A DNA stretch of 32,000 nt from Candidatus Lokiarchaeum ossiferum (GCA_025839675.1 CP104013.1:840001-872000); one strand, 5' to 3'. Shown: positions 9,272 to 31,656, counted from the stretch's first letter. The notes: generated by a model not told the origin, from the sequence alone. A program made the numbers and translations.

Positions 9272-10279
9272 CTAAATTCCCTCGTCTCCTAGGACTAATG
9301 AAACAGTATAATCAACATAACTTCGGCCATTTTTGCGATTGATATAGACCATACCCATATTTTCAAGTTCTTTGATATCAGAATAAGCGGTTTTTATTGT
9401 AATATTGGTAAGGGTTTTGAATTCCTTCACCTTCACAGTCTTGTTTTCAATTAAACAATATAATATTTTGTATAGTGATTTGGGAGGTAAATCCGGTCTG
9501 ATGAATTCCATAAATTTAAACAGACCTTCTTTTAAATAATTGATTGTTTTTTCCATCTCAAGGATGCCTTCACCGAGTTCAATATTTTCTTTAAGGAGAT
9601 CATCCGTATTATCTTCATTCGAATTAACTTGATTTTCAATCATTTTTATTCGGTCATTAATTTGATCATATTCCGCTTGCTTGGCTTCAAGAGCTTGTTC
9701 CGATGCAATTAATTTTTCCCCTAAATTAAAAATTTCTTTATCCATTTGATCTTTTTCTCTCTGAAATGCAGCATTATCCGTCATTAACTCGGAAATTTCT
9801 TGTGCTAATTCAGAGTTTTTAGTAGTGACCTCTGCAATTTTTGAATCTATTTCAATTGAATTTTTTTTTAATTCCCTCATTTGACTTTGATAATCGCGGA
9901 TAGTCAGTTCAAATTCTTTTTCTTTATTTTCAAAATCATTTTTCGCTTTAGACATAGAACTAAGCTTGATATTTTGACGTTCAATTTGTTTTCGGGCCAC
10001 ATTAAGAGAATCAGATAATTTTTGAACGTTTTGCTCTAAAATAGCTTTTAATCGGTAAAGTTGTTCATATTCTTCATGGTTTTCTTCGATTTGATCTTTA
10101 ATGGTATCAATATACTGCAAAACAAATTCACGATACTCATCTGTATCTTGGACAGGCTCATCCAAATTAATTGATCCATCAGAATATTCACTATTTTCTT
10201 CACTTAGCATTGATTTAATATTTTGGATTCGCCTGTATAATGCATCCGTGTCTTCATCGAGATCTTTATAGTTTTGCAT
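9272..10279 (-). CDS. coiled-coil protein with C-terminal winged-helix (HTH) domain
   Basis: 335-aa ORF. About 230 aa are heptad-like, Glu/Lys/Gln/Asn-rich. The C-terminus, LYKILYCLIENKTVKVKEFKTLTNITIKTAYSDIKELENMGMVYINRKNGRSYV, resembles a MarR/ArsR-type wHTH. Confidence 0.6.
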   Translation of the reverse strand: MQNYKDLDEDTDALYRRIQNIKSMLSEENSEYSDGSINLDEPVQDTDEYREFVLQYIDTIKDQIEENHEEYEQLYRLKAILEQNVQKLSDSLNVARKQIERQNIKLSSMSKAKNDFENKEKEFELTIRDYQSQMRELKKNSIEIDSKIAEVTTKNSELAQEISELMTDNAAFQREKDQMDKEIFNLGEKLIASEQALEAKQAEYDQINDRIKMIENQVNSNEDNTDDLLKENIELGEGILEMEKTINYLKEGLFKFMEFIRPDLPPKSLYKILYCLIENKTVKVKEFKTLTNITIKTAYSDIKELENMGMVYINRKNGRSYVDYTVSLVLGDEGI

Positions 10280-17811: not shown

Positions 17812-18549
17812 TTATAATCGCATCGAATAAGGAATTAGGGCCCGTCGCATTATTTTACTATAAGAATAAAGCACAGAACGCATAGATTTTACAAGACTAA
17901 GGATTAATTCTCCTTTAATGCTAGTATAATAGTATTTCAACAAAATCATGTCTGCTTTGTGATCATGTTCCTTAAGGTTTGTATTTATGATGGTTTTTAT
18001 CTCGGATAACCGTTCTTCCCTAATATCTTCATCAATCAAATCTATTTTATGGAGAAATACATTAAATTGAGCTTTTGGTGCAACCAATGATTTCGAGTTT
18101 AATGCTTCTATTAGATCTTCCAAAATTTGATCCTTAAATTTATCAAACTGACTGATATCCATTACAAAGATGATAGAATCAGATTCACCAAAAGCTTGCT
18201 CTTGATCTAACCCAAGCCAACGTTCTATTTCTTGACCCGCAGAATCTGCAACCCCTGCTGAAACATCCAACCAATTATAGGTATAATTTTCAATTCCTCG
18301 AGTTGGTTCCAAAGGATCATCAATCAAGGTTTGTGGACTTGAGTCTTCGAAAAACACACTCCGTATAGTAGATTTTCCTGCTGCGGGGGGACCAATGAAC
18401 AATATTCGCCTGATCGATTCATCTTCATTTGCAATTCCGAGCATTCGCATTAAAAAAGCATCGGTAGGCTCCCCTTCTTCCTTATTGGCATCAATTAATT
18501 CAGCCACTTTTTTCGAGACTTCAATTGAGACCTTTTCTTCTTCTGTCAT
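17812..18549 (-). CDS. Rag/Gtr1-family small GTPase with about 45-aa N-terminal extension
   Basis: 245-aa ORF with G1 GPPAAGKST, G3 DSAGQE and G4 LHKID (HKxD is the Rag/Gtr1 variant of NKxD). Blocks GKSTIRSVFF, FLHKIDLIDEDIRE and YYTSIKGELILSLVKSMRSVL parallel RagA GKTSMRSIIF, LVHKMDLVQEDQRD and [21 protein letters not shown] (recalled from memory). Confidence 0.7.
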   Translation of the reverse strand: MTEEEKVSIEVSKKVAELIDANKEEGEPTDAFLMRMLGIANEDESIRRILFIGPPAAGKSTIRSVFFEDSSPQTLIDDPLEPTRGIENYTYNWLDVSAGVADSAGQEIERWLGLDQEQAFGESDSIIFVMDISQFDKFKDQILEDLIEALNSKSLVAPKAQFNVFLHKIDLIDEDIREERLSEIKTIINTNLKEHDHKADMILLKYYYTSIKGELILSLVKSMRSVLYSYSKIMRRALIPYSMRL

Positions 18550-18758
18550 AATTCATCCCATTCTTAATCCTAGAATCGTATTAACGATCATTTTGATTTT
18601 TAGTGCTTAATATGTATCCGTTTGAATTATTTCTTGTAATATTTTTAAAAAATAGTTGTTATTAAAAATCTTCAATCATGTGGAAACAATCTTCGGAAAT
18701 TAAACCCAGCACTCAATATTCACAAACACTCAAATATAATATCAGATTTGAACAAAAT

Positions 18759-19319
18759 ATGGATAAAAATGCACTTTGGAAATCTTTTCCGGAATTAGAA
18801 ACACCTAGATTATGGCTAAAAAAAATGAGCCGAAAGCATGCAAACGAACTTATGGAATTTTGGGGTGACGATGAAGTAACCAGATATACAGACTTTAATT
18901 CATTTAGGGAAATCCAAAAGATAGAAAAAACAATAAATTGGGTAAACAACCGGTTTAAAGATAAATATGGAATTCGGTGGGGCATTTTTCTCAAAGAAAA
19001 CTCAAAATTGATTGGAACTTGCGGATTTAATTCATGGATCACAGATCGGGGAAACAAATCCGAAATTGGATACGATTTACATAGAAAATATTGGCGAAAG
19101 GGATATATGTTTGAAAGTCTTTATAAAATGATTACCTATGGATTCCAGGAAATGAAATTGCATCGCATTGAAGCAGATGTGGATCCAAATAATATGGGGT
19201 CACAAAAATTGTTGGAAAAACTCCATTTCACTAAGGAAGGATGCTTGCGGGATAATGGGTATTGGAAAGGGCAATATTGGACGACTTTGATATATGGTCT
19301 TTTAGAAAAAGAATTCTAA
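18759..19319 (+). CDS. GNAT family N-acetyltransferase (RimJ/RimL-like)
   Basis: The ORF opens at 18678, but ATG 18759 (MDKNALWKSFPELETPRLWLKKMS) matches the usual RimJ/L N-terminus (ETxRLxLR). The acetyl-CoA region is GYDLHRKYWRKGYMFESL, followed by HRIEADVDPNNMGSQKLLEKLHFTKEG. Confidence 0.8.
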   Translation: MDKNALWKSFPELETPRLWLKKMSRKHANELMEFWGDDEVTRYTDFNSFREIQKIEKTINWVNNRFKDKYGIRWGIFLKENSKLIGTCGFNSWITDRGNKSEIGYDLHRKYWRKGYMFESLYKMITYGFQEMKLHRIEADVDPNNMGSQKLLEKLHFTKEGCLRDNGYWKGQYWTTLIYGLLEKEF

Positions 19320-19498: not shown

Positions 19499-20264
19499 TT
19501 ACCGTAGGAGATTCATTCCTGGTTCTATGCCCGTCGGAGCGACTTTCGACACTTTCATCATTGCGACACTAGAAATTAAAACGATCATCACATTATCATT
19601 TCCAGCAATTTCGTGCGTTGTTGCATCAAGCAACACAAAAAATCGCACAATTTCACCAGCATCTAAAATAGTGTTGGAGTGTACTTCATCATAGAATGCC
19701 ATGCCATATGTATTATTTATGGCTGCACTATTCCAAAAATACGCTTCATCATTTAGAGCAGAATTATATGATAATCTTGACTCATTTAGCGAACCAATGA
19801 ACACAGAAACTTCAATGGCAGATTCTGACAGATCAACTTCACCCGTACCTAAGACTAAACGCATATTCCATACAAGCCCTTCGAGTTTACTATTTCCATC
19901 AGCGTCGTAACCTACGACGAGTCCGCCCTCTACTATCATGAATTTTTCCACAGATTTATTTTTGTGTGTGAATAAAATTTTGCATGGCAGATGAAGCTTG
20001 CTGCAGTGCCTGTTGCCCCGTTGCACTGAGTTGTTGTTGTAATGTTGATCCCATAGTGAGGATTACAAATGCAACTCCAGCTGCAGTGATTATAAAGGCA
20101 ATCAAGATGATTGCGGCGGTCATCCCTTCATTTGCTTTTCGACCTTTTTTGGTACGGCGACGTCTGATCCGGGCGTTGGTTGCTTTATCGGCATTAATCT
20201 TGCGGATTTCCTGACGAGAATCGCAAGAACTTGATTGCAATTTGCTGCTCATAACAGATTTCAC
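19499..20264 (-). pseudogene. arlB: archaellin (ArlB/FlaB) split by a +1 frame change
   Basis: ORF 19956..20264 encodes the leader plus the archaellin N-terminal helix, TAAIILIAFIITAAGVAFVILTMGSTLQQQLSATGQQALQQASSAMQ. ORF 19499..20026, offset by one nucleotide, continues with the archaellin-type beta-rich body, MIVEGGLVVGYDADGNSKLEGLVWNMRLVLGTGEVDLSESAIEVSV. The frames meet at minus-strand CACACACAAAAATAAA (19955..19970). The likely start is ATG 20252, preceded by AGGTGA. Confidence 0.7.
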
Positions 20265-20402
20265 CTGTTTAATTTTTGGCCACTTGAGTCATCTTACAAC
20301 TAGCGTAGGATTTGTCCAGTTCCAAATTTTATTCAATTCTTGAGACAAAGGTTAATACTTAAAGACAATTATTAGAAAAATTCTAAAAAAAATGATTTCA
20401 TC

Positions 20403-22184
20403 TTAGAGAATTGCAACACCAAAACCACCAATCAACTCACCAGCTACTTGACTGATCACAATAATCTCTAAACCCGCAATAATATAATATTGAGACAAGT
20501 ATTTGGTAACTTTCATCCAAGTACCTCGTTGAGGAATAATTATGGCCAGACAAGCGTAAATTGGCATAGTTAAATAATAGATGGTGAAATACAAATCAGT
20601 AAAAAATGCAGGAGGTGGTTTACCTAACTGTAAATTCATCCCTTGGACATCTTGCAGAGCACCCATTGTGACATTCAATAGGAAAAGAACATCTTTCATA
20701 AAGATCATAATCCCAATATTAATAATAGTGAGCATCAGTAAAGTCCCTTTGAAGACCCCAATTACCTGCTGCCTATCCCGACGGAGCTTCAATATTTTTT
20801 CAACATTGGTTGAGATAAATTTGGATATTATTTCGGTATTACCTCCTATATCTAAACTAGAAGTAAAAATTCGAAGAAAACGATCAATAATACTGCTGGA
20901 TGTGCTATCAGAAAACCATTGCCACGCAATAATCGGATCAATCCCAAATTTTGATTGGGTGTATAATAATTTAATATCAGTAGTCAAAGGACCAAATTGT
21001 TCCCGAGAGATGATGTTAACAGAATCAAAAATGCTTCCTCCTAATAATGCTGTTGTAGCGCCCAAAGTGCGAATAAAAACGGGGAAATTAGCATCCCGTC
21101 GTTTTATAATATCTTCAAATTTTTCAGCAACATAACCAGGATAAAACATGGAGATTCCAAATATGATCATGAAAACTGGGAGAGAGATCACAGAATTACC
21201 GTCAGCATCTTTTAGAAAGAAAGTAATGAATGCCAAAATTGGCATGAAAACAAAAACACAGATTAAAAAGGAATAAAGAACTTTTTCGTACTCAGCGGTT
21301 TTCCTTTGAATATTCACCAAACCATCTTTGGGGGAGATCGCATAAAAGGCAACCATAAGAGCAATATAAACAAGTTCTATTACCCCCAAAATGAGAAATA
21401 AATTCCGAGTATTGGCAGCTTCATCACTTCCAAAAAGAAACATCATCAAAAGAAAGGTAATAGATATAAAACTCAATGAAGTGGAAAGTGCGGTAAACAT
21501 ATCGTTAAGTACCTCAAGGGATTTCAACTTGCGAGTATAATCCGAAATATAACCGTTTAAAACCGATTGCTGTTCTTTTAAGAAATAATCTTCTAAATTT
21601 TCACCCGCATCCAAAGCTTGGGAAAAACGGGAGAGAAAATCACCAAATCTGGAACTTGCTGTCGTAGCACTTACTTTTTTAATGCTATCTAAATATCCAA
21701 GATTCCACTCTTTCGCCATGGTACGAATTCGTTTTACCTCTAAAGCAATTAGTCCAAAAGATTTTTCCCGACGACTTACATTCTCAAAAAGTTGATCTCG
21801 ACTAGCTTTTGAGGTAGAAATACCACCCATATAGGTAACAAGCATAGGAAGAGCAGTATCAATTTGTTCTTGACGTAAAGAGCGTTTAAAATAGGGAAAG
21901 ATAAAAACTATAATGAATCCAAGAAAAAAACATGAAATTGATAAAGGAAAAATTATCCCAGAAATCATAGGGCTCATTTCCAATAAAATTCCGATGATTA
22001 TTCCGGACCCTAGACCACCCACTGTAATAGGGAGAAGAATTTTAAATAAATATTCACCTATGGATTTCTGTATTCCTGCTTGGATTAGTGTTTGTTGGAA
22101 CGAATCAACAAGTTTCCGATAAACATCTTGCATTGTTTCTTTGAAACTTTGTTTTTTATTCTCTTCGTCTCGTTTTTCCATCAT
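20403..22184 (-). CDS. arlJ: archaellum membrane platform protein ArlJ (FlaJ)
   Basis: 593-aa polytopic membrane protein with two TadC/GspF-like halves. The size and the position directly after arlI are typical of FlaJ. Confidence 0.8.
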   Translation of the reverse strand: MMEKRDEENKKQSFKETMQDVYRKLVDSFQQTLIQAGIQKSIGEYLFKILLPITVGGLGSGIIIGILLEMSPMISGIIFPLSISCFFLGFIIVFIFPYFKRSLRQEQIDTALPMLVTYMGGISTSKASRDQLFENVSRREKSFGLIALEVKRIRTMAKEWNLGYLDSIKKVSATTASSRFGDFLSRFSQALDAGENLEDYFLKEQQSVLNGYISDYTRKLKSLEVLNDMFTALSTSLSFISITFLLMMFLFGSDEAANTRNLFLILGVIELVYIALMVAFYAISPKDGLVNIQRKTAEYEKVLYSFLICVFVFMPILAFITFFLKDADGNSVISLPVFMIIFGISMFYPGYVAEKFEDIIKRRDANFPVFIRTLGATTALLGGSIFDSVNIISREQFGPLTTDIKLLYTQSKFGIDPIIAWQWFSDSTSSSIIDRFLRIFTSSLDIGGNTEIISKFISTNVEKILKLRRDRQQVIGVFKGTLLMLTIINIGIMIFMKDVLFLLNVTMGALQDVQGMNLQLGKPPPAFFTDLYFTIYYLTMPIYACLAIIIPQRGTWMKVTKYLSQYYIIAGLEIIVISQVAGELIGGFGVAIL

Positions 22185-22220
22185 ATATCAGTTTGATTTG
22201 GTTATTTGACCATGATTAAC

Positions 22221-24008
22221 TTAGAGTGCGGCATCGTCTTCTTCCTTCATACGCCGTTTCATTGTATCTACTACTTCTTGAGGTAATTTCTTTTTGTTTT
22301 TATAAGTGGTTAATATTCGAAAGATAGTATGGTAATTTTGAATTCCAAGTTCTCCAAACGCTTCTAGGATATGTCGTTTCGTGCGTAATTCGTCATAGAG
22401 CATTTTAATATCTTTTCGTTTTATTCCCCGTTTGACTGCGATTTTTTGTTCAAATACATAGGATTGATTTCTAAATATATGAGTATCATCCCCTGCATCC
22501 CATGCAAAAAGCTCAACATACCTAAATTTATCTTTTTTTGGAAGATAATCAACTAATTCATTGCAAGAAATGCAACGACGTAATAATTTTCCCGTTTTTC
22601 CTTGAACTGCCATTTGTATATAGACAAGATCAAGTAAAGCAATAAATGCAGGAGGGACATTAATAGGCTTCCCAGTCATACGATTCACAAATGCTCGTAC
22701 ACTACCAGCGTGGAAAGTAGCAACCATCGGGTGACCAGTTTGCATTGCTTGAAAAGCCATGTTTCCTTCTTCACCACGAATTTCTCCAATAATTATTAAA
22801 TTTGGACGTTGTCTGAGAGCTGCCTTTACAAGAAGAAAAATATCCACGGGATTTCCAGCTGAAGCAGGACGGGTGACTTCTCGAGTCCAATTTTGGTGAG
22901 GCACTTTTACTTCTGGAGTATCTTCAATACTTACGATTTTTGCATTAGGTCCAATAAAAGTGAGTAAGGCATTCAAAGAGGTCGTTTTTCCAGATGCAGT
23001 TTCACCAACAACCATCATAGAATGATGAGATTCCAGGGTCATCCATAAATATGCACATAATTGGGAACTAAGAGTGCCCCATCCAATAAGATTGACTACA
23101 CTGATAACATCTTCACTAAACTTACGGATTGTGAAATTTGATCCATGCATGGACACATCTGTTCCATAGACGATATTAATACGAGAGCCATCGGGTAAAG
23201 CAGCATCAACCACAGGATTGGAGTGGCTCGCAGGACGTCCAGAACGTTCGCTAAGATATAGGGCAAACAAATCAAGTTCTTCATCCGTTTCAAATATAAT
23301 GGTACTTTCAAGAGATTCAAAGATTTTATGTTCTACAAAGAGTGGACCTTTCCCATTACAAGTTATATCTTCAATATATGGATCATTAATTAGTGGTTGG
23401 AGTTTTCCTAAACCAATCTTATTACGAATAAAATAATAACGGACCCGTTCAGCGACGACGGGATCGAGCTTCAATTTGGAACTCTGTTTCAATTTGGACA
23501 GCAATTTCAAAATTGGATTTGAAGAATCTGTTTTTTCATAGGAAGTTCCTGATCCTCCACCACCGATGGAAGTATCAATTATACGAGCAGCAAACTTGTC
23601 ATATAATTTAATATGATCTTCTTTATTCTCTGGAATATCATTGTACTTAATCAAAGAGGTTAAGGTGGACATAATTTTTTCTTGAGCATCTGTAGTAGCT
23701 TGATTTAATGTAGGTTCTATTGAAGAATATAAGATTCTGGAAGGCCCGGGATAAATATGTATAAATACAGGTCCATCTGCAGGGTATAAAACATTGGGAT
23801 ATTCCAATTTTTTATGCTTGCGCTCTAATTTTTCAATATATACAGGCACCCCAATTTCTTCATTGTAGTTCTGAATTAAATAGTCCAGTACATGAGGGTA
23901 TTTGGCAGTAATTTGCCTTAATACAACATTTTGATTAATTTTGGCTTCTGCTTGGGCCATTTCTTGCGTGGACATTGTTTCTGTCATGTTTAATTCAGCA
24001 TTCAACAA
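22221..24008 (-). CDS. arlI: archaellum assembly/motor ATPase ArlI (FlaI)
   Basis: 595 aa. Walker A is VVGETASGKTTSLNALL, followed by VSIEDTPEV, Walker B/Asp box LIIIGEIRGEE and His box ATFHAGS. This is a type II/IV secretion ATPase of the FlaI type. Confidence 0.9.
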   Translation of the reverse strand: MLNAELNMTETMSTQEMAQAEAKINQNVVLRQITAKYPHVLDYLIQNYNEEIGVPVYIEKLERKHKKLEYPNVLYPADGPVFIHIYPGPSRILYSSIEPTLNQATTDAQEKIMSTLTSLIKYNDIPENKEDHIKLYDKFAARIIDTSIGGGGSGTSYEKTDSSNPILKLLSKLKQSSKLKLDPVVAERVRYYFIRNKIGLGKLQPLINDPYIEDITCNGKGPLFVEHKIFESLESTIIFETDEELDLFALYLSERSGRPASHSNPVVDAALPDGSRINIVYGTDVSMHGSNFTIRKFSEDVISVVNLIGWGTLSSQLCAYLWMTLESHHSMMVVGETASGKTTSLNALLTFIGPNAKIVSIEDTPEVKVPHQNWTREVTRPASAGNPVDIFLLVKAALRQRPNLIIIGEIRGEEGNMAFQAMQTGHPMVATFHAGSVRAFVNRMTGKPINVPPAFIALLDLVYIQMAVQGKTGKLLRRCISCNELVDYLPKKDKFRYVELFAWDAGDDTHIFRNQSYVFEQKIAVKRGIKRKDIKMLYDELRTKRHILEAFGELGIQNYHTIFRILTTYKNKKKLPQEVVDTMKRRMKEEDDAAL

Positions 24009-24150
24009 TTCTCATGGAATTCATATTGAAGATGTAGAAATTGTTTCTAACCATCCAAGTAACCCTTTTTACTATATATTTGGGTTTTTAGAAATTTCTT
24101 CACAAAAAAATCAATTTTTTTATCTTAATTGAAAGAAAAAATGAAATAAT

Positions 24151-24912
24151 TTAAGCCGCAGAAATAACTGAAACCGCAATTCCAAAGGCAGAATCAATAT
24201 TAAAGACAATTAATTGAGATATTTCATCTTGTGCTAACCATTTTAAAACTGAACACGCTTTGAAGGCCGTTCCATCTTCTTCTCGCTGTTCAAATCGAAG
24301 AATTAAGTCACATAAATTCATAAAATTTAATTCGATATAGTCATATAACTCGGGGAAGTAAGTTGGAATAGTAATAATGACTGTTTTTCCACCAATGGTT
24401 AATCTTTTACACAATTCAAAGAAAAACATTACTTGTTTAGGATCAAAATTCTTTCCGACAAAATAAGTCAGGGAATCAATAATAATCACTTCGCTTTCAA
24501 TGTTGGATATTAGATCAATTAACTTAAACATTACATCAGGAGTACGTAGAACTTTTCCTGATTGAGACACAACAGGAATAATGTCAAACTGTCCAGTTAA
24601 AAAGAAATCTTCTGCTCTTTCCCAAGATAGAGAGAACATATTTTGCACTAAACCTTTGACTGTCATCTCACTTGTGATATAGGAAACGGTCTTTCTACAT
24701 CGCAAAGCACCATAAGCAATTTGTTGACACCATACAGACTTCCCTGCCCCCATATCCCCAGCAAATACTGCAAGAGATCCACATTTTACTCCACCCCCCA
24801 GATTTCGATCCAATTCTTCATTCGTTGTGAGGAAATATTCGGAGAAATCTTTTTCTGGCCCTTTTTTTTCTTCTTTATCTGCAAATGATTCCATAATTCT
24901 GTTTCCTCGCAT
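24151..24912 (-). CDS. arlH: archaellum KaiC/RecA-like ATP-binding protein ArlH (FlaH)
   Basis: 253 aa with Walker A FAGDMGAGKSVWCQQIAYG and a hydrophobic strand plus Asp (VIIIDSL). It sits between the F/G-like genes and arlI. Confidence 0.85.
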   Translation of the reverse strand: MRGNRIMESFADKEEKKGPEKDFSEYFLTTNEELDRNLGGGVKCGSLAVFAGDMGAGKSVWCQQIAYGALRCRKTVSYITSEMTVKGLVQNMFSLSWERAEDFFLTGQFDIIPVVSQSGKVLRTPDVMFKLIDLISNIESEVIIIDSLTYFVGKNFDPKQVMFFFELCKRLTIGGKTVIITIPTYFPELYDYIELNFMNLCDLILRFEQREEDGTAFKACSVLKWLAQDEISQLIVFNIDSAFGIAVSVISAA

Positions 24913-24927
24913 TAATTCGTAATGATC

Positions 24928-25464
24928 TTATGATAGGGTGTTATAAATAAATGAATCTCCGACCCCATTAGGGGTTGAAATTCGGTAATAATAGTATTGC
25001 TCCGCTATTGTTACATTAAACGTAATTGTGATATTTAAAAGCTCATGAGGATCCCAATAAGTGGGATTGTGGGACAAATCACCTAACATAGTAAACGACC
25101 AATAACATCCAGCACTGATAATTGCAGCACCTAAATTCGAACTGGGAATCCATCTATCATAGACATATGGCCCACAATCAAGAACTTGAGTGACATTTGT
25201 AAAAACATCCATAGAGTCCAATTGATAAATAATTTCTGTTCCAATATTTTCTATCACTAAATTAATAGCCATTTCAGAAGGATCGCGCGAAGCATTAATT
25301 AATTGAATGCTTGTATGGATGCGAGAAAATTCCCGATCGTAATTGTTTTCCTGAGCTTCTGTTATCAATTCATTAGAACTTTGAAAAGCTGAATAAAGCA
25401 TAGATCCCACTAACAGAGTACAAAGAAATAACATTCCAAAGGAAATTGATACTGATTGTCCCAT
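24928..25464 (-). CDS. ArlF/ArlG-family archaellum stator/periplasmic protein
   Basis: 178 aa with an N-terminal hydrophobic helix (ISFGMLFLCTLLVGSMLYSAF) and a beta-rich domain containing LVIENIGTE..MDVF, as in FlaF/FlaG proteins. I cannot tell F from G by eye. Confidence 0.6.
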   Translation of the reverse strand: MGQSVSISFGMLFLCTLLVGSMLYSAFQSSNELITEAQENNYDREFSRIHTSIQLINASRDPSEMAINLVIENIGTEIIYQLDSMDVFTNVTQVLDCGPYVYDRWIPSSNLGAAIISAGCYWSFTMLGDLSHNPTYWDPHELLNITITFNVTIAEQYYYYRISTPNGVGDSFIYNTLS

Positions 25465-25499
25465 TTTTTTTCAAGTTTTTTTTATGTTCAAAGAAAATT

Positions 25500-25979
25500 T
25501 CAAATTGAAAATTGATAAATTTCACTAATTCCTGATATAGCGATAACTATTTGATGAGAACCAGAATTAATTGACTCACCATCAGGAAAATACATGCGAA
25601 CTATAATTGTCTCGAGTGGATCCCAAATATTGTTTCCATTGTCGTTCAAGATAGTTGCATTCCATCGAAAAAGACTTGTGTCCGCACTGTCAAGGTAATA
25701 ATAGTCCCCATCTAAGAAGACATCCATTTCAGAGAAGGACCCCACAGATGCATCCCCAAGATTCTTCACATAACCATATATTGTTGAATTCCCCGCTTCT
25801 GTGTTTCCTATAGCAAGTACTTCAAAATCAGTATTAATTTGATTAGCAAAATTTTGACCGCTGTTGTTAATTGATGCACCTATTGCAGCCGCTACAGTAA
25901 AAGCCGCTGCGATGACAACTATAGTTGTTACAATCGACGCTGTAGACATTATTCCAGTTGATACTGCATTATCACTCAT
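25500..25979 (-). CDS. ArlG/ArlF-family archaellum protein
   Basis: 159 aa with an N-terminal helix IVTTIVVIAAAFTVAAAIGA and then YVKNLGDASVGSFSEMDVFLDG, the FlaG/FlaF-type N-x-G ... D-V-(F/I)-x-D-G block. It is the first gene of the operon. Confidence 0.6.
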   Translation of the reverse strand: MSDNAVSTGIMSTASIVTTIVVIAAAFTVAAAIGASINNSGQNFANQINTDFEVLAIGNTEAGNSTIYGYVKNLGDASVGSFSEMDVFLDGDYYYLDSADTSLFRWNATILNDNGNNIWDPLETIIVRMYFPDGESINSGSHQIVIAISGISEIYQFSI

Positions 25980-26144
25980 ATAGAATACCTAAAAGGTTGA
26001 CCTTTAGTTACTAGTTCTTAGTGAATTCCTTGCCAAATATTAAGAGTTTAAAATGATTTTTTGGAAAGATTTTGAAATAATTCTAAGGTCTTTTTTTGAA
26101 GGGAGAAATAATAGGGAGAAGATTGCATACTTTCGTTAATAGTC

Positions 26145-27554
26145 ATGACAGAAGCAAAAGATTTATTATTAGTTTGGATCGGTCAAGCGGGAGTAAATAT
26201 TGCCGAAAGATTTTGGGCATATGCATATGAAACGCTAGGTATTCCAGTACCAATCAAAACGGGAGATATTCCCGCAGACATTGATAAGATGCTCGATAAG
26301 AAGTTAGAAATGACAGAATTCTATACAGAATACGAAATTGAAGAAGCACGTCGGATGTTCTTCTACAATCTGCTAGATGATAAAGATCGAGCTAGTAATA
26401 AACAAAAAAAATATATCCCGCGATCTATTTTTATTGATTTGGAAGCCCAACCAGTTCGGAGTTTTCATGAACGAAATTCCCATATTTTTCCAAAGGATGA
26501 TTTTATCTACAATACATTCGGATCTCATTCAATGTGGGCACGGGCCAAGCGTATTGGTACCAATTTAAAACCATACATCCTTGATCGAATTCAATCTCTT
26601 ATTCAAATGCGTGCGATTCAAAACTTAGAAGGCATAATAATAATTCATGCAACGGGAGGTGGAGCAGGATCTGGACTTCTTGATAGTGTATTTGAAGTTC
26701 TGCAAGATAAGTTCCCAAAAGTCCCTACCCTCACTTTTTCAATTTTTCCAAGTCGAAAACTCAGTGGAAATGTTATTGAAGCATATAATACAATTTATGC
26801 AGCAAACAGTTTATTAGCAAATGCAAGTGCAACAGTGTTACTTGACAATGATAAAATAATTAATTTGGTAAAAGAAAAATATCAGATTGAATCACCCACT
26901 TATGAAGATATTAATATGATAATCTCTCGGTTAATATTCAGTGTGATTATGCAAATTGCAATGCCTGGTGCCATCATTCGGGCGGATTTCAATAAATTAT
27001 TCACAAATTTAGTACCCTACAAATACATGAAATTTTTGTTAGCAGGTATTGCTCCCTTTAAATTTGATGAATTTTCTCAAAATTCTACAGAAGATCTAGT
27101 GAAAGAGCTCACTGATGAGCAGAATTATATGGCCGATGTAAACTTTGGTACAGGTAAATATGTATCTACCATGTATTTCTTCATGGGAAAACTAGGTCCT
27201 GAAGTGAAAACTCCTCTCCGAATTGCCAAAGAAAATATGGATTTTATGCCATGGATTCCGACTGGTATGTTCATAGGAATTACTCCACGAGAAAAAATGA
27301 CCCTTGATGGGATGCCTCTTTTACGTCAAGGAATTGTTTTAGCAAATAATTCGGCAATGCGGTTTATATTTCAAAGAACTATGGCACAATTTCAAGTGAT
27401 GTTTAATAAAGGTGCATTTATGCACCATTTTAAGAAAGAAAACATAGATGCGGAAAAAGAATTGAAACAAGCCGCAGCCAATATTACACGAATGATGAAA
27501 TTTTATGAGATTGCAGAAAAATCTACAACTAAAAAACGAACTGTTAAATCCTAA
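26145..27554 (+). CDS. tubulin-family GTPase (bona fide tubulin-like, not FtsZ/CetZ-like)
   Basis: 469 aa. Block-by-block correspondence to eukaryotic tubulin:
- VWIGQAGVNIAERFW / IQAGQCGNQIGAKFW
- KYIPRSIFIDLEAQP / KYVPRAILVDLEPGT
- HATGGGAGSGLL / HSLGGGTGSGMG (T4 signature)
- VIEAYNTIY...VLLDNDKI / VVEPYNATL...CIDNEAL
- FTNLVPYKYMKFLLAGIAPF / [20 protein letters not shown]
- FMPWIPTG / FVEWIPNN
- NNSAMRFIFQRTMAQFQVMFNKGAFMHHF / [30 protein letters not shown]. Confidence 0.9.
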   Translation: MTEAKDLLLVWIGQAGVNIAERFWAYAYETLGIPVPIKTGDIPADIDKMLDKKLEMTEFYTEYEIEEARRMFFYNLLDDKDRASNKQKKYIPRSIFIDLEAQPVRSFHERNSHIFPKDDFIYNTFGSHSMWARAKRIGTNLKPYILDRIQSLIQMRAIQNLEGIIIIHATGGGAGSGLLDSVFEVLQDKFPKVPTLTFSIFPSRKLSGNVIEAYNTIYAANSLLANASATVLLDNDKIINLVKEKYQIESPTYEDINMIISRLIFSVIMQIAMPGAIIRADFNKLFTNLVPYKYMKFLLAGIAPFKFDEFSQNSTEDLVKELTDEQNYMADVNFGTGKYVSTMYFFMGKLGPEVKTPLRIAKENMDFMPWIPTGMFIGITPREKMTLDGMPLLRQGIVLANNSAMRFIFQRTMAQFQVMFNKGAFMHHFKKENIDAEKELKQAAANITRMMKFYEIAEKSTTKKRTVKS

Positions 27555-27582
27555 TTTTTTCCTTTCATTGTTTTCAATAAAA

Positions 27583-28473
27583 CTAAACATTGTTTAATTT
27601 CAGAACTCCATTAGAAATCGCTTTTTTTTCTATATGATTAACAACATTGAAATATATTGTGATTTCATTCTCATTAACGATTTTTTTTAATACTTGAAGT
27701 TTAATTTCGGTTCCTGGAAGTACCATACCGGTAAATTGGCAATATATTTCCTTAACATTTGAAGGATTCCCTCCAGATTCTCGGTTGATAATAGAACTTA
27801 CAGCTATAGCCAGAGTAGCAGTCCCCTGTAAAATATTACCGGGTAATTTAACAGAATGTGCAAATTTTGGAGAAGTATGAATTGGGAAGACTATATTTGT
27901 ACATCCATCGTAGACATAGGGAAGACATAGATCAATGAATATATCTTCAACCCATTCAGGTTTTCCTTGCCATTTGTTATCCAAATAGGACGGCATAGTG
28001 GGAAGGTTACTAATCTCTGCCCCTTCTGGAGAACATTTCACACCTCGCAACATAATGCCTGTGTATTCGGTAAACACTCTATATCCTTTTCTGTCGGTGG
28101 CTTTAAATTCTCCAATAAAATGACTTCCCGCACGATGAGGTTTTATCGCTGCAATCTGCCCTTCGATCTGTAGACGATCCTTGGGTTTAATCAACCTATG
28201 GACAATAATATGTTCTGAATAATGAACCCCACGGGCTAAAAAATGTTGAGGAAAGTTTTGATCGATGATAAATTCAGAAATATTTTCAATTATTGGCCAA
28301 TTTACAACAACTGGAAAGAGTGGATGAGCTACGAGCCCACCCTTTTGTTCATCATCGAAATAATAAGGATTGGAATCTTTTATTGATGCAGCATAATTTG
28401 TGGTTTGTCGCCAAGTTACTCGCGTTTTATATGGTTTAAGGATAGTTCCAACATATTTTAAATCGAGTTCCAT
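27583..28473 (-). CDS. MaoC-like (R)-hydratase/dehydratase, double hotdog fold
   Basis: 296 aa. The N-terminal half, WRQTTNYAASIKDSNPYYFDD...VAHPLFPVV, resembles MaoC_dehydrat_N. The C-terminal half, with FPIHTSPKFAHSVKLPGNILQG, resembles the MaoC dehydratase hotdog (HxxxxxA...G-x-I-x-x-G). Confidence 0.55.
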   Translation of the reverse strand: MELDLKYVGTILKPYKTRVTWRQTTNYAASIKDSNPYYFDDEQKGGLVAHPLFPVVVNWPIIENISEFIIDQNFPQHFLARGVHYSEHIIVHRLIKPKDRLQIEGQIAAIKPHRAGSHFIGEFKATDRKGYRVFTEYTGIMLRGVKCSPEGAEISNLPTMPSYLDNKWQGKPEWVEDIFIDLCLPYVYDGCTNIVFPIHTSPKFAHSVKLPGNILQGTATLAIAVSSIINRESGGNPSNVKEIYCQFTGMVLPGTEIKLQVLKKIVNENEITIYFNVVNHIEKKAISNGVLKLNNV

Positions 28474-28763
28474 TCTATTCTAAATTGTATTTTCTGTTCA
28501 TTTTAAACTTTACTTCACTGGAAAGGAGTAATATACCAAAACTACTCGTATCTATTTCAGATTTGTAATAATCGAAGAAATTTTAAACTTCTATATTTGA
28601 AAGAAGAATCAATCATAAAAAATGCATTAGGAAACACCTTTCCATTTATAGAAGATTTATGTTTTTCACTAAAATTTTTACAAAATTTTTTTGCAAAATC
28701 ATCTATATTAGTCGAAGGTGATAAATTTCTAGTAATCCGGAGAATTTTTTTCTATTCGGAACG

Positions 28764-29531
28764 GTGAATCATATGTCTGTACAAATCGAGGATATTTCTA
28801 ATACCTATATTATGACAAAATCAGAAACTTTGTTTAAGATTTTGCAAGCGTTGAGCTTTAAGGGTGGTAGTTCAAGCACATCTTCATTAAAAATTGCTGT
28901 AATGCTGGATGATAACATTATCGCCGCAGCTTTGAAGGGTGGAGAACTTTTAAAATTCATTGAAAAAGATGAAGATGAATACGCCCTCACAGCTGAAGGT
29001 GAACGAATTTTAGAAGTCAGTAAAAAAGAACAACAAGATATGGTGGCTAAAAGCTATTATGCTATTGAGGGCTATCGAGATATTGTTTTTCGCATGAAAA
29101 TGGCAAGCAATCAGATGCAAATGAAAGAACTTGAAAAAGCATTCTATATATTGGAAAAAGATATGCGTGATGAACTAAGAAAAGTAATTGTTGATAGTTT
29201 TATAGATTTTGGTCTTTATGCAAATGTTTTAGAAACTAATAATAATGCAGCCAATCCAGGAGTTTTATTAACCGCTAATGGAGTTTCGCAATTAGATGCA
29301 GTATTAGCAGCGAAAAAACGCAAACGTAAGGGAGGTACTGCCCCCACAGCAGCCAGTTCTGGTGGAGGCATTGTAAGTGATTTATCTTGTCAATCTTGTG
29401 GAAAAGCGATTATGCCAGACTTTGCCATGTGCCCCTATTGCGGTACTGCGTTAAAACGTTCCTGTAGCAATTGCGGTAAGGAATTACAACCAGGCTGGAA
29501 AATGTGTCCCTTCTGTGGAACCGGACAATAA
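28764..29531 (+). CDS. winged-helix-like protein with C-terminal double zinc ribbon
   Basis: 255 aa with GTG 28764 or ATG 28773 as start. The C-terminus CQSCGKAIMPDFAMCPYCGTALKRSCSNCGKELQPGWKMCPFCG gives four CxxC pairs, i.e. two zinc ribbons (DZR-like). The N-terminus LFKILQALSFKGG...LKFIEKDEDEYALTAEGERILE is wHTH-like. A KKRKRKG basic linker joins them. Confidence 0.65.
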   Translation: MNHMSVQIEDISNTYIMTKSETLFKILQALSFKGGSSSTSSLKIAVMLDDNIIAAALKGGELLKFIEKDEDEYALTAEGERILEVSKKEQQDMVAKSYYAIEGYRDIVFRMKMASNQMQMKELEKAFYILEKDMRDELRKVIVDSFIDFGLYANVLETNNNAANPGVLLTANGVSQLDAVLAAKKRKRKGGTAPTAASSGGGIVSDLSCQSCGKAIMPDFAMCPYCGTALKRSCSNCGKELQPGWKMCPFCGTGQ

Positions 29532-29679
29532 TCAATCACATCCTAAGGAATGTTTTGTCTTTATTCTTTTTTCTCTTTTATTAACAGGTCTTGCATTTAT
29601 TTCCAAAAACAATTCTAAAATCCATATATATATATCTTCCAAACATCTTATTAAGTAGAGGTTTTAGTAGAGGCTTTCC

Positions 29680-31656
29680 ATGAGTATTGGCGCAGATGAT
29701 AAAGATGATCTTTTGTTTATCTTCATTGGTCAACGAGGACTTCAAATCGGTAGTATCTTCTTTAATTTAATTAAGGACGATTATAAAGGAAAGCGATATG
29801 ATATTTTGGATTTTTTTTCCAAGGTATTTTTTATTTGTGAAACCGAAAGTCAATTCCGAGAAATTGGAACCATGATAGAAGGATATGTTCCCGAAGAAAA
29901 TGTGCTTTTAATGGGAGAATTAAATACAAGCGGAGATTTATGGTCAAATATTGAAGAAAATGACGATATATTCGCAAGTAGAGTTTTTGCTCCATTAATG
30001 TACGCTGTTGATCAACTCGCAAAGCCAAATATTCTTCTTTTTTATGACCTTTCAAATGGAAAACAAGCAGGAATTTGTGATTATTTATTGATCAATTTTC
30101 CTTTAGTAAAACAACAAATGCCAATCTATGTGATTGCCACAACATCTATCGATGAAGGAGCAGGTGCTTTATCTATTTATTGGAGTATTTTAGGGCTAAA
30201 CTCGATCATTCAAGGATCCACAGCAAAAGCTTGTATTCTATTAGATTATGAAGCAATTGGAAATTCAATTTTTCTAAAACGAATTAAGAAAATGGATGAT
30301 ATTGATTTTGAGAGTTATAACTATGTTGTAGCCCAATTAATTTACTCCATCACATATTATGATAGAGAACCATATTCAAATGCTGTGCCATTTTGTCAAA
30401 TGATTGATAAACTCGTGATTTTCAATGACATGAAATTCATCATTCCCTTCATGACAATGCCTCGTCGTGAATTGATCGAAGATGAAACGTTTTCGGGCTA
30501 TTTAAACGAGTTGGTAAATGATTGCAACCTATTTTCAATGAATTATAAACGCCCCATAGATGAAAATGGCGTTGAACAAGATTATCCTAAAATTAGTCTC
30601 GCTAATGCATTTATTGCCTTTGGGGAAAAACAAGATACACACTATCTAAACTTAATCCGGAATAATTTACCTCCGATCATGGAATATTTGCCTGGCACTA
30701 AAACGTTTTATACATATCCCCGCGGGGACCCTTTCTCCGTTTTTTTAGAGAATAATACAGTTGTTCGTCAATATTTTCAAGACCTTTTGGAGAAATTTGA
30801 TATTCTTATCTCCCATCATTCTTATCTACATGTTCTTGAGGATTTAGGAATCACCGTAGATTCATTTTCGGATGCCTTAGACAAATTGGTCTCAATAGTG
30901 GATGCATACCAAGAAAGTGAGGATCTGCTCTATGATGATGAAGAATTCGATTATGAAGAAGAAATATCCAAGTATGATCAACCTGTTGATGAAGAGGAAG
31001 AACTAAAACGAAAGTATGGAGATACTACAGAAGGCACTTTAGAAGGAGAAATATCTGAGAAAATAAAGGGAATAAGCGACGCAAATGATCCTGAAAATAA
31101 TGAATTTCAAGGAGAAGAAGGAAGCAAACCAGAAATTTCTTCACCAAAAACTGATGCTTCGGAAGATTCAATAAATAAAACACCAAAATTGGATAAAACT
31201 CAAATCATTAGAACAAAAGATGATGAAATCAATGATATTGATAAATTATCACAAAATATTGACGCCAAATCAATTTCAAACTTAAATGAACAAGCAATAA
31301 AACAAAATCCACGAAGATCCCGTCCAACTCGCACTCTGAAATTACAAAAAGCCGATCCAATTTTAGTCTCAAGGGAAGGAGGTCGAATTGTGAAAGAAGA
31401 AAAACCAGATAAAGCGGAAGGAAGCGCTTTAGGTTGGTTAGAAATGCGTGCCAATAAGGAAAAAGAAAAAGTTCAGCAAGAGAAGGCTGAAATCACCAGA
31501 GAACGAGAACGCATTGAACTTGAAAAACGCGAATTTGAAGAAGCACAAGAACTCATTCGGTTAGAAGAAGAGAAGAAAACCCAAGAAGAAACGGAAAAAA
31601 CATTAAAGAAAAAAGAAGAACTGAAAGAATTAGCTAAAATGTTTGAAAATCTATAG
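29680..31656 (+). CDS. divergent tubulin-family paralog with degenerate GTP-binding signature and long acidic/coiled-coil C-terminal extension
   Basis: 658 aa. The tubulin-like core spans about aa 1-410, with these correspondences to eukaryotic tubulin:
- IFIGQRGLQIGSIFF / IQAGQCGNQIGAKFW
- YVPEENVLLMGE / YVPRAILVDLEP
- ILLDYEAIGN / CIDNEALYD
- YNYVVAQLIYSIT / LNHLVSATMSGVT
- ENNTVVRQYFQDLLEKFDILISHHSYLHVL / [30 protein letters not shown]
The T4 position reads DLSNGKQAG instead of GGGTGSG. An acidic stretch (ESEDLLYDDEEFDYEEE) follows, then about 230 aa of low-complexity and K/E-rich heptad sequence. Confidence 0.75.
   Translation: MSIGADDKDDLLFIFIGQRGLQIGSIFFNLIKDDYKGKRYDILDFFSKVFFICETESQFREIGTMIEGYVPEENVLLMGELNTSGDLWSNIEENDDIFASRVFAPLMYAVDQLAKPNILLFYDLSNGKQAGICDYLLINFPLVKQQMPIYVIATTSIDEGAGALSIYWSILGLNSIIQGSTAKACILLDYEAIGNSIFLKRIKKMDDIDFESYNYVVAQLIYSITYYDREPYSNAVPFCQMIDKLVIFNDMKFIIPFMTMPRRELIEDETFSGYLNELVNDCNLFSMNYKRPIDENGVEQDYPKISLANAFIAFGEKQDTHYLNLIRNNLPPIMEYLPGTKTFYTYPRGDPFSVFLENNTVVRQYFQDLLEKFDILISHHSYLHVLEDLGITVDSFSDALDKLVSIVDAYQESEDLLYDDEEFDYEEEISKYDQPVDEEEELKRKYGDTTEGTLEGEISEKIKGISDANDPENNEFQGEEGSKPEISSPKTDASEDSINKTPKLDKTQIIRTKDDEINDIDKLSQNIDAKSISNLNEQAIKQNPRRSRPTRTLKLQKADPILVSREGGRIVKEEKPDKAEGSALGWLEMRANKEKEKVQQEKAEITRERERIELEKREFEEAQELIRLEEEKKTQEETEKTLKKKEELKELAKMFENL

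Follow-up and report, generated by a model that had tools for sequence, protein, structure and literature searches.

A predicted tubulin-fold protein without the GTP-binding motifs is conserved beside AtubC and an archaellum operon in Lokiarchaeia

Do two tubulin-like genes that lie close together in Candidatus Lokiarchaeum ossiferum encode a heterodimeric tubulin of their own, and if not, what else might their products do? Asgard tubulins offer the best current view of the origin of microtubules, and Ca. L. ossiferum is one of a small number of Asgard archaea in culture that allow their study. We analyzed a stretch of 32,000 nucleotides from this organism (GCA_025839675.1 CP104013.1:840001-872000, hereafter the window; positions are counted from its first letter). 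An earlier note had described two same-strand genes in the window, with products closer to tubulin than to FtsZ/CetZ, and had interpreted them as an asymmetric pair that follows the logic of alpha/beta-tubulin and BtubA/B. Both open reading frames (ORFs) are present on the plus strand:

26145..27554, plus strand: ORF A, 469 amino acids (aa), a genuine tubulin, assigned to AtubC
29680..31656, plus strand: ORF B, 658 aa, a predicted tubulin-fold protein

The window corresponds to the left portion of the tubulin gene cluster found in Lokiarchaeia. ORF B is apparently a fifth tubulin-fold paralog in L. ossiferum, undescribed in the literature that we searched.

ORF A belongs to the tubulin branch. 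It matched the Pfam families Tubulin (PF00091, E-value 1.8e-34, 120.1 bits, cut-off 33) and Tubulin_C (PF03953, E-value 3e-12, 47.2 bits, cut-off 26.6) above their gathering thresholds, and FtsZ_C was not found in the same scan. In all comparisons with the PDB, the best 60 matches were inspected, out of 170 for ORF A, 110 for ORF B and 108 for a profile of the ORF B family. The closest relatives of ORF A among its best 60 were Heimdall AtubB (7.7e-57) and Loki AtubA (4e-56), followed by Loki AtubB, BtubA/B and beta-tubulins, and these 60 contained no FtsZ or CetZ chain. The AlphaFold2 (AF2) monomer model of ORF A had a predicted local distance difference test score (pLDDT) of 82.3 and a predicted template modeling score (pTM) of 0.88, with low confidence at residues 38-57.

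The nucleotide-binding signatures of ORF A were found where the earlier note had placed them, with GQAG in the T1 loop (residues 13-16), GGGAGSG in T4 (residues 171-177) and LDNDK at residues 233-237. The T2 loop reads DLEAQP, and LDND of T6 is kept. Judged from these residues (T1, T2, T4 and T6), ORF A should be a GTP-binding tubulin, with T3 as the exception: it reads GSHSMWARA where tubulins have GAGNNWAKG, and the consensus in the AtubC family is GSxSx[WFY]ARA. Three features of the protein deserve separate mention:

26655..26675, plus strand: T4 loop GGGAGSG, with Ala for the usual Thr; invariant in the AtubC family
26994..26996, plus strand: T7 residue Lys284 (codon AAA) in DFNKLF, at the site of the catalytic Glu in alpha-tubulin and AtubB
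26241..26402, plus strand: H1-S2 loop, approximately residues 33-86, about 30-45 aa longer than in other tubulins, with the motif EEARRxFFY

ORF A is not a catalytic subunit of the alpha-tubulin or AtubB type, as it has no acidic residue at T7. The manual alignment behind the earlier note had already pointed to this lysine, and in our alignments Lys284 indeed shares its column with Glu in Heimdall and Loki AtubB and with Lys in AtubA. The T7 Lys, in the context DFNK[LIV]FTNLVPY, is present in every AtubC-family member aligned (10 in one alignment). A tubulin subunit with Lys at T7 cannot activate hydrolysis in the subunit below it, as exemplified by K254 of beta-tubulin. The expanded H1-S2 loop and its EEARRxFFY motif are also common to the AtubC family; phmmer splits the ORF A alignment at this expansion, into residues 5-33 and 87-455. 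Members also share an insertion of five residues in the S9-S10 loop. ORF A is 28-29% identical to AtubA/B and 44-91% identical to other members of its own family. In a crude neighbor-joining (NJ) tree (423 columns, 100 bootstraps, Odin tubulin left out), the family formed a clade with 99% support, apart from AtubA+BtubA and AtubB+BtubB.

ORF A can be assigned to a recently named clade. Three clades of Asgard tubulins, AtubA, AtubB and AtubC, have been distinguished, with AtubA/B always in tandem, AtubC less than 10 kb from them in Lokiarchaeia and AtubB2 distant; no biochemistry is given for AtubC (Lowe et al., Sci Adv 2026; PMC13394414). Like the AtubC clade of that study, the ORF A family differs from both AtubA and AtubB, is confined to Lokiarchaeia-type contigs, and has members close to the AtubA/B tandem. 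For our own comparison, we used eight independent loci, namely the window together with L001 (a contig of an independent assembly), L003, L004, L033, L034/35, L036, L038 and L040. The distance from the ORF A ortholog to AtubB is 4-5.4 kb in L003, L004, L034 and L036, and 8 kb in L038. By synteny, rather than by comparison with the authors' AtubC sequences, ORF A is AtubC, because it is the sole Pfam-detectable tubulin within 10 kb of AtubA/B besides that pair. AtubC was named in 2026 and is uncharacterized, and ORF A is thus already known by name. The main text and supplement text of PMC13394414 contain no mention of the AtubC T7 Lys, the expanded H1-S2 loop, the altered T3 or ORF B.

ORF B is recognizable as a tubulin relative by comparison with tubulin sequences and structures rather than with domain families. 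The Pfam search proposed in the earlier note gave a clear answer for ORF A and none for ORF B, which failed both Pfam tubulin domains, without a tubulin match even at E=1, and had no match in NCBIfam. PDB matches to the single ORF B sequence were all tubulins, with BtubB (1.4e-7) ahead of beta-tubulins (approximately 3e-7) among the best 60 of 110, and the family profile matched BtubB (3.7e-9), Odin tubulin (4e-7) and then beta-tubulins among the best 60 of 108. Neither set of 60 contained an FtsZ or CetZ chain, and no Asgard tubulin B chain was among the best 60 matches of ORF B. Foldseek superimposed the AF2 model of ORF B on beta-tubulin with an E-value of 1e-21 and a target template modeling score of 0.76-0.80 over about 440 columns, at 16% identity. 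Model confidence was high at residues 10-260 and 350-418 (pLDDT 80-90) and low at residues 263-340. On this model, ORF B would have the fold of the tubulin/FtsZ superfamily, with a Rossmann-like GTPase domain, H7, an intermediate domain and H11-H12, even though the protein is only about 16-20% identical to any tubulin. The placement of both products in the tubulin branch, as in the earlier note, was thus borne out, for ORF A by Pfam and PDB matches and for ORF B by PDB matches and AF2/Foldseek. Membership of ORF B in FtsZ/CetZ was ruled out by the same PDB matches, all of them tubulins in the best 60. Three parts of ORF B can be told apart:

29680..30933, plus strand: degenerate tubulin-fold core, residues 1-418, as delimited by alignments, AF2 and the ratio of nonsynonymous to synonymous substitution rates (dN/dS)
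30919..31425, plus strand: acidic tail EDLLYDDEEFDYEEE at residues 414-428, followed by a fast-evolving disordered linker
31426..31656, plus strand: C-terminal module with a GWLEMRA motif and a charged helix of about 75 residues, ending in LAKMFENL before the stop codon

The core has lost the residues that tubulins use for GTP. T1 reads GxRGxxxG, with an invariant Arg where tubulins carry Cys or Ala, Cys and Thr occupy the two acidic positions of T2, T3 reads GDLWSN where GAGNNWAKG is usual and has lost the asparagines, T4 is SNGKQAG instead of GGGTGSG and retains two of the five glycines, and the tubulin DN is changed to DY. From these motifs, ORF B would not be classed as a GTP-binding tubulin. 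T7 reads NAVPFCQMIDKLV, with Gln240 (MAFFT alignment) or Met241 (HMMER alignment) in the position of the catalytic residue; the equivalent is Asp in a divergent clade of the family, and never Glu or Lys. H11-H12 are well kept (ENNT...KFD...SYLH). The loss of GGGTGSG and the tubulin-like acidic tail, both noticed earlier, were found again and mark ORF B as a degenerate paralog. The T2 and T3 regions, by contrast, are substituted and not shortened as had been thought, and the main shortening is an almost complete deletion of the H1-S2 loop.

A long C-terminal extension exists, as the earlier note had said, but it is hardly a coiled coil. The linker has pLDDT below 50 at residues 447-582, and the terminal helix at residues 583-657 has pLDDT of about 90. 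Of the 76 residues of this helix, 55% are charged, and hydrophobic residues occupy 10 of the 22 a/d positions. As modeled, the helix resembles a single alpha-helix (SAH) or is at best a weak coiled coil. The C-terminal module, which may serve as a tether or bind a partner, is conserved in all full-length orthologs.

Purifying selection on the ORF B core is very strong, and the core is better conserved than AtubC. Against L004 orthologs, dN/dS was 0.019 for the ORF B core, 0.24 for the ORF B linker and 0.029 for AtubC, with 0.051 for the gene directly upstream of ORF B (wHTH-DZR, described below) and 0.019 for the archaellum protein ArlI; these values are approximate, as dS was near saturation (about 1.6). 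Across one common set of genomes, the ORF B core was 73-80% identical, compared with 58-65% for AtubC, 61-70% for wHTH-DZR and 81-86% for AtubA/B. The ORF B frame is intact in all eight loci, and 130 residues are invariant among orthologs (545-737 aa) down to 38-42% identity. Conservation exceeded the family mean in H2-S3, T3, S6, the T4 remnant, H9, H10, H11 and T7, where regions were delimited by an approximate beta-tubulin reference with a numbering offset of 2 from the literature.

The ORF B family is small. A "hypothetical protein" of Ca. L. ossiferum (WP_371805016.1/XEO75707.1) matches ORF B at 100% identity, and UYP44420.1, the product of NEF87_000705, clusters with it at 90% identity or more. 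AtubC and wHTH-DZR are presumably NEF87_000702 and NEF87_000704. We found six family clusters in an index of 5.8 billion proteins, and five clusters at E<1e-30 among 1.84 billion representatives. Weaker profile matches were, where checked, tubulins or other degenerate tubulin-like proteins, and a metagenome scan with the ORF B profile added one further locus only. The literature that we searched held no paper on ORF B, on NEF87_000705, or on genes of tubulin type within the archaellum operons of Asgard archaea.

ORF B clearly did not arise by recent duplication of a neighboring gene. With the ORF B core as query, hhalign gave 96.5% for gamma-tubulins (E-value 8e-10), 95.7% for AtubC (E-value 9e-9), 62% for AtubA and 48% for AtubB. 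In the NJ tree, the AtubC clade and the ORF B clade each had 99% bootstrap support, and ORF B grouped with three remote degenerate proteins (P0023, P0024 and P0029, see below) with 98% support. This grouping, which could reflect long-branch attraction, has a long branch of its own, apart from AtubA+BtubA, AtubB+BtubB, AtubC, alpha-, beta- and gamma-tubulin. AtubB2 was considered as an identity for ORF B and ruled out, since AtubB2 (9f6v_D) has 423 aa and matches AtubB at 1e-117, and ORF B has 658 aa.

AtubC and ORF B are embedded in a conserved gene neighborhood, of which the window contains the following parts:

28773..29531, plus strand: gene for a winged helix-turn-helix (wHTH; AAA_assoc_C/HTH_45) and double-zinc-ribbon (DZR) protein by Pfam, 252 aa from the ATG at 28773; here called wHTH-DZR
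19956..25979, minus strand: archaellum operon arlG-arlF-arlH-arlI-arlJ with a short archaellin-like gene, by NCBIfam, divergent from AtubC
25980..26144, no strand: divergent intergenic region of 165 bp between the archaellum operon and AtubC, presumably a shared regulatory region
27583..28473, minus strand: MaoC/hotdog dehydratase gene by Pfam match, a lineage-specific insertion with a dN/dS of 0.10

In related loci, the archaellum operon (minus strand) is followed by AtubC (plus), 0-2 small variable genes, wHTH-DZR (plus) and ORF B (plus), and then by 1-2 variable genes and two tandem tubulins of 423-430 aa (minus). AtubC, wHTH-DZR and ORF B co-occur in 8/8 independent loci. The wHTH-DZR gene lies directly upstream of ORF B on the same strand in all eight, with one exception caused by an insertion sequence (IS) element in L038. 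AtubC is divergent from arlG in the seven loci with determined upstream genes (all except L040, where these were unchecked), and the archaellum arrangement is the same in all related loci. The cluster order persists despite an inserted MaoC gene, an IS element, a restriction-modification-type methyltransferase gene and small ORFs; the IS element and the methyltransferase gene are both insertions in L038.

The tandem tubulins are AtubB and AtubA. They are found beyond ORF B in all five loci that reach far enough (L003, L004, L034, L036 and L038). The first has Glu at T7 (DMKEF) and is AtubB, with 845 bits for the L003 copy against L. ossiferum AtubB; the second has Lys at T7 (DLGKL) and is AtubA. 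L. ossiferum AtubA/B are reported to form mini-microtubules of five protofilaments, and heterodimers of AtubA with an additional paralog, AtubB2, to form tubes of seven protofilaments (Wollweber et al., Cell 2025). The earlier note had wondered whether the two ORFs might be the published microtubule-forming pair or a variant of it. They are not: AtubA/B are separate tandem genes for proteins of 424 aa, downstream of ORF B in the relatives, and neither ORF is AtubB2.

In L. ossiferum itself (window and L001), AtubA/B were not seen in the 4.7 kb downstream of ORF B, which in L001 comprise a 101-aa gene, an 1101-aa gene and non-coding DNA. The larger gene (L001:12642-15947, minus strand, approximately window positions 32321-35626) encodes a protein without a Pfam match and follows ORF B and the gene for the 101-aa membrane protein, whereas the relatives have just 1-2 short genes between ORF B and AtubB-AtubA. 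It looks like an insertion that distances AtubA/B from the rest of the cluster in L. ossiferum.

ORF A and ORF B are co-conserved, like the genes of heterodimeric tubulin pairs, and the corresponding check suggested in the earlier note came out in its favor (8/8 loci). They are, however, not adjacent co-transcribed paralogs as the genes of such pairs are. A gap of 2.1 kb separates them in the window, occupied by wHTH-DZR and the opposite-strand MaoC gene, and 1-3 genes intervene in relatives. What the earlier note had called unexplained context is in part explained, in that the MaoC gene is an insertion, and the wHTH-zinc-ribbon gene and the archaellum operon are conserved neighbors.

Proteins resembling ORF B also occur in more remote loci. 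The top matches of the ORF B profile outside the family were the degenerate tubulin-like proteins P0023, P0024 and P0029, all without the H1-S2 loop and the T4 signature, and each nearer to ORF B than to canonical tubulins in BLAST comparisons. ORF B is 24-26% identical to P0023 and P0029 (E-values 1e-6 to 1e-8). Their genes, and the surroundings of the third, are as follows:

L041:9432-10631, same strand as arlJ: P0029, 399 aa, inside an archaellum operon, downstream of arlJ
L043:10001-11197, same strand as arlJ: P0023, 398 aa, inside an archaellum operon, downstream of arlJ
L037:3-827, minus strand: fragment of an AtubC-like tubulin (N-terminal 275 aa) with GGGAGSG, DLEAEP, GTGSIYAERN and Glu at T7 (DFGELF)
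L037:1539-4267, plus strand: P0024 operon, encoding a 380-aa protein with coiled coil and C-terminal wHTH, a 138-aa protein and P0024; divergent from the AtubC-like tubulin

P0029 and P0023 are separated from the preceding gene by at most 12 bp. Both operons have the order ArlG/F-like, ArlH, ArlI, ArlJ, 1-2 genes and the dead tubulin, with ArlI scores of 634 bits (L041) and 597 bits (L043) against an equivalog cut-off of 550, and 51-53% identity to the ArlI of the window. The two contigs are from ENA metagenomes and have GC contents of 0.34-0.35. The L037 contig, which is 4.4 kb long, combines a dead tubulin with an AtubC-like tubulin, and the Glu at T7 of the latter suggests that the T7 Lys of Lokiarchaeial AtubC is derived.

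The remote loci share further genes with each other. A long coiled-coil protein ending in a wHTH is encoded at L043:8084-9535 and at L037:1539-2681 (with 40% identity between the wHTH parts), and L041:8942-9421 and L037:2687-3103 encode helical proteins of 138-159 aa (28% identity). Their combination of coiled coil, wHTH and dead tubulin parallels wHTH-DZR and ORF B with its charged helix. No significant homology was detected between the wHTH-DZR protein and the remote coiled-coil-wHTH proteins, or between the small proteins encoded after arlJ in Lokiarchaeia and their counterparts in the remote operons. The set of dead tubulin, wHTH protein and archaellum operon, with or without an AtubC-like tubulin, recurs in at least two or three arrangements beyond inherited synteny. 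ORF B and its archaellum-linked relatives appear to be new within the tubulin family.

Together, these observations lead us to propose, with a probability of roughly 45%, that ORF B is a nucleotide-independent subunit that pairs longitudinally with AtubC to give a static, non-hydrolyzing heterodimer or cap, tethered by its tail and tied to the archaellum. The longitudinal surfaces of tubulin type that are conserved in ORF B, namely its T7/H8 and T3/T5 faces, would bind a GTP-loaded tubulin. AtubC would be the likeliest partner, because L037 repeats the pairing of an AtubC-like tubulin with a dead tubulin, and because AtubC and ORF B share their orientation. The product might be a static heterodimer, a short filament or an end-cap, and not a dynamic microtubule; no hydrolysis would be expected, because the T7 residues are Lys and Gln/Met, so that there is no catalytic Glu, and because a canonical pocket is missing from ORF B. 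Through its long tail and terminal helix, ORF B may tether the assembly to another structure; judged from gene linkage, this would be the archaellum motor or the apparatus that positions it, and the wHTH-DZR protein is a possible adaptor or regulator. A bolder version, which we regard as quite unlikely, is that the GTPase-dead family provides archaellum motor components or anchors that replace ArlX/ArlCDE in Asgard-type archaea, and that it couples the motility machine to AtubA/B microtubules through AtubC.

Several points weigh against a tethered AtubC/ORF B assembly. The AF2 input alignment for ORF B included tubulins, which may bias the model toward the tubulin fold. AtubA/B co-occur with ORF B in all five long loci, so that AtubC is not singled out as the partner, and the Lokiarchaeial loci are mutually related, so that their synteny could partly be inheritance and not function. 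The degenerate pocket of ORF B is itself highly conserved (0.89 for the T4 remnant and 0.93 for T3), and some ligand or a non-canonical mode of nucleotide binding may therefore remain. As to the archaellum, the operon-embedded cases of P0023 and P0029 are single metagenome contigs, and no canonical tubulin was seen around them in the visible contigs, which suggests that the family can work without a neighboring tubulin. To our knowledge, no archaella have yet been seen on cultured Lokiarchaeia.

How else could the locus be read? ORF B might serve the AtubA/B mini-microtubule, with AtubC separate, either as a substituting subunit in the manner of AtubB2 or as an end cap, nucleator or anchor comparable to gamma-tubulin/GCP, with the extension anchoring the tube ends. 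The position of ORF B between AtubC and AtubB-AtubA in the five long loci fits this reading, AtubB2 is a precedent for an additional paralog that alters the lattice, and the ORF B profile scores gamma-tubulins like AtubC (96.5% versus 95.7%). The H1-S2 loop of tubulin makes lateral lattice contacts, and its loss from ORF B would suit an end-binder rather than a wall subunit. We nevertheless consider this role unlikely, as ORF B-like proteins occur in loci without visible AtubA/B (L037, L041 and L043), the hhalign values are weakest for AtubA and AtubB (62% and 48%), and ORF B is encoded on the strand opposite AtubB-AtubA, the same as AtubC. It is similarly doubtful that the ORF B family acts as an archaellum motor accessory, forming a cytoplasmic ring or scaffold in the role of ArlX/ArlCDE, with no tubulin partner and with the proximity of AtubC and AtubA/B being secondary. 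The genes of P0029 and P0023 follow arlJ within archaellum operons, seven Lokiarchaeial clusters adjoin such an operon, no ArlX or ArlCDE was found among the operon genes scanned with NCBIfam from the window, L041 and L043, and tubulin-superfamily proteins of haloarchaea have already been tied to archaellum/type IV filament machinery. In Lokiarchaeia, however, AtubC lies between the operon and ORF B, which are not transcribed together, the operon-embedded relatives are without the tail and charged helix of ORF B, their homology to ORF B is weak (24-26% identity, E-values 1e-6 to 1e-8), and the 98% bootstrap grouping could be due to long-branch attraction.

The model of the earlier note, in which ORF A and ORF B form an alpha/beta-like heterodimer with a dynamic, GTP-driven microtubule-type cytoskeleton of its own, has become improbable. 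Both proteins belong to the tubulin branch and are co-conserved, and ORF A has Lys at T7 as beta-tubulin does. Dynamic tubulin polymers, however, need a catalytic acidic T7 residue that is inserted into the GTP site of the partner. The alpha/beta and BtubA/B logic calls for two GTP-binding subunits, with Glu in one T7 and Lys in the other; here the T7 residues are Lys in AtubC and Gln/Met in ORF B (Asp in its divergent clade), and ORF B is without GGGTGSG, the T2 acidic residues and the T3 asparagines. The locus does not follow this logic, and no AtubC/ORF B interface could activate GTP hydrolysis. In addition, the genes are not in tandem, as one or two others lie between them, including one on the opposite strand, and H1-S2, an element of lateral contact, is missing in ORF B and greatly expanded in AtubC. 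A DNA-partition or positioning module of the TubZ/TubR type would have the wHTH-zinc-ribbon protein bind both DNA and the ORF B tail, and so couple DNA to a tubulin-family filament. In tubR-tubZ, a wHTH gene immediately precedes the gene for a tubulin-family protein with a long C-terminal tail, which the order of wHTH-DZR and ORF B resembles, and the remote loci also encode a coiled-coil protein with C-terminal wHTH upstream of the dead tubulin. We find such a module highly improbable all the same, because a cytomotive filament needs GTPase motifs that ORF B does not have, and because no solved or DNA-binding protein was significantly related to the wHTH domain. The locus is also chromosomal and a neighbor of motility genes, and no centromere-like repeats were seen, although no search was aimed at them. 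The loss of canonical motifs and the absence of a Pfam match could finally indicate a decaying, functionless tubulin duplicate. This explanation is effectively refuted by the selection data, with a core dN/dS of 0.019, 130 invariant residues, an intact frame in 8/8 loci and a core more conserved than AtubC.

The sequence of the locus is not a product of contamination. A eukaryotic contaminant or chimera was ruled out by the even GC content of the window (0.30-0.38 throughout), the intron-free genes, the archaeal neighbors, the synteny in eight loci, and the identical independent assembly, as L001 had 0 mismatches to the window over 12.3 kb and the gene for the 469-aa tubulin was also called there. 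A profile scan of genome contigs with an alignment of AtubC, AtubA and AtubB found mainly BtubA/B loci of Verrucomicrobia and returned no Asgard genome, and the phyletic survey was therefore carried out by contig look-ups. Tubulin fragments were also seen on L028, L030 and L032, contigs of 550-3449 bp labeled as Microbacterium arborescens, a gammaproteobacterial metagenome-assembled genome and Glycocaulis profundi; they are most likely due to eukaryotic contamination of bacterial assemblies.

Among the neighboring genes, the MaoC gene is not part of the conserved cluster. It occurs only in the window/L001 and in the 91%-related L004, and is absent or replaced by unrelated small ORFs in L003, L033, L034, L036 and L038. 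Of the archaellum proteins in the window, ArlI scored 604 bits (NCBIfam equivalog cut-off 550), and ArlG, ArlF, ArlH and ArlJ were best matches below their equivalog cut-offs. The sole archaellin-like gene of the operon (19956-20264, minus strand; 98-102 aa) matches only the N-terminal part of Arch_flagellin, and no full-length archaellin was seen in the window. A conserved 146-aa gene lies just beyond the archaellum operon (L001 1-260; window ORF 19499-20026, minus strand). Phased T-tract and A-tract elements (for example TTTTGGAAAGATTTTGAAATAATTCTAAGG and TTTTTACAAAATTTTTTTGCAAAATC) are found in the intergenic region 25980-26144 and in 28474-28772, upstream of wHTH-DZR, and L003, L033, L034 and L036 have similar ones in the corresponding regions. 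A shared operator is one possible explanation, mere AT-rich DNA another.

Past the far end of the archaellum operon, the window encodes a Gtr1/RagA-like small GTPase (17812-18549, minus strand; Pfam 1.9e-20), with a GNAT acetyltransferase gene (18678-19319) between the two. A similar GTPase gene is found at a comparable position in L003, L033 and L034, so that the conserved neighborhood reaches this gene. Farther away, a 335-aa protein (9272-10279, minus strand) carries HTH_11 at its C-terminus and matches an ATG16-like coiled coil at 1.1e-7, slightly short of the Pfam cut-off, and proteins of 1273 and 668 aa with Zn_ribbon_Top1 are encoded nearby; these are unrelated to the tubulin finding.

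If ORF B is the tubulin-fold paralog that it appears to be, the tubulins of L. ossiferum exceed those reported, with AtubA, AtubB, AtubB2, AtubC and a fifth, GTPase-dead member, and the tubulin cluster is a conserved five-gene unit that includes the wHTH-zinc-ribbon protein. A nucleotide-free, tail-bearing tubulin-fold subunit would be a candidate for a prokaryotic microtubule-associated, capping or anchoring factor, lacking so far, and ORF B would give AtubC a testable partner and role. The recurrent placement in or beside archaellum operons suggests an unexpected link between the tubulin family and archaeal motility, and makes ORF B-like proteins candidates for the cytoplasmic scaffold of archaellum motors without ArlX/ArlCDE. 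Should coupling to the archaellum through AtubC be real, an association of tubulins with a motility organelle would predate eukaryotes. These proposals are directly testable with reagents and methods in use for AtubA/B.

How does the locus compare with known systems? FtsZ and TubZ likewise combine a core with a disordered, variable linker and a conserved C-terminal module, and the wHTH gene upstream of ORF B recalls TubR, but FtsZ and TubZ are active GTPases that form cytomotive filaments, whereas ORF B belongs to the tubulin proper branch and is without the GTPase motifs. ArlX and ArlCDE are lineage-specific, operon-encoded cytoplasmic accessories, and ORF B-like genes are present where none of them was detected (window, L041 and L043); ORF B has no sequence or fold relation to them, so that any likeness would be one of function. 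Precedents for a tubulin-superfamily protein connected with the archaellum were found in the literature for CetZ in haloarchaea only. CetZ1 affects archaellum assembly in Haloferax (H. volcanii) and, like AtubC/ORF B, is linked functionally or genomically to archaellum/type IV filament machinery. It differs in being an active GTPase from another branch of the superfamily, and cetZ1 lies outside the archaellum operon.

Alpha/beta-tubulin and BtubA/B share the predicted fold of ORF B, with alignable H11-H12 and T7-H8, and ORF B also has an acidic tail. These heterodimers have two GTP sites and one catalytic Glu, whereas AtubC/ORF B would have one canonical GTP site and no Glu, and the genes for AtubC and ORF B are not in tandem. 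AtubB2, with 423 aa, is close to AtubB and encoded elsewhere in the genome; ORF B differs from it in its 658 aa, the missing H1-S2 loop and an extension of 240 residues. AtubB2 reportedly has no nucleotide-binding site. The AtubA/AtubB2 heterodimer (PDB 9f6v, 9hxc) would then combine, in the same organism, a GTP-binding tubulin carrying Lys at T7 with a paralog said to be nucleotide-free, as proposed here for AtubC and ORF B. By this analogy, AtubA/AtubB2 is a closer counterpart of AtubC/ORF B than alpha/beta-tubulin.

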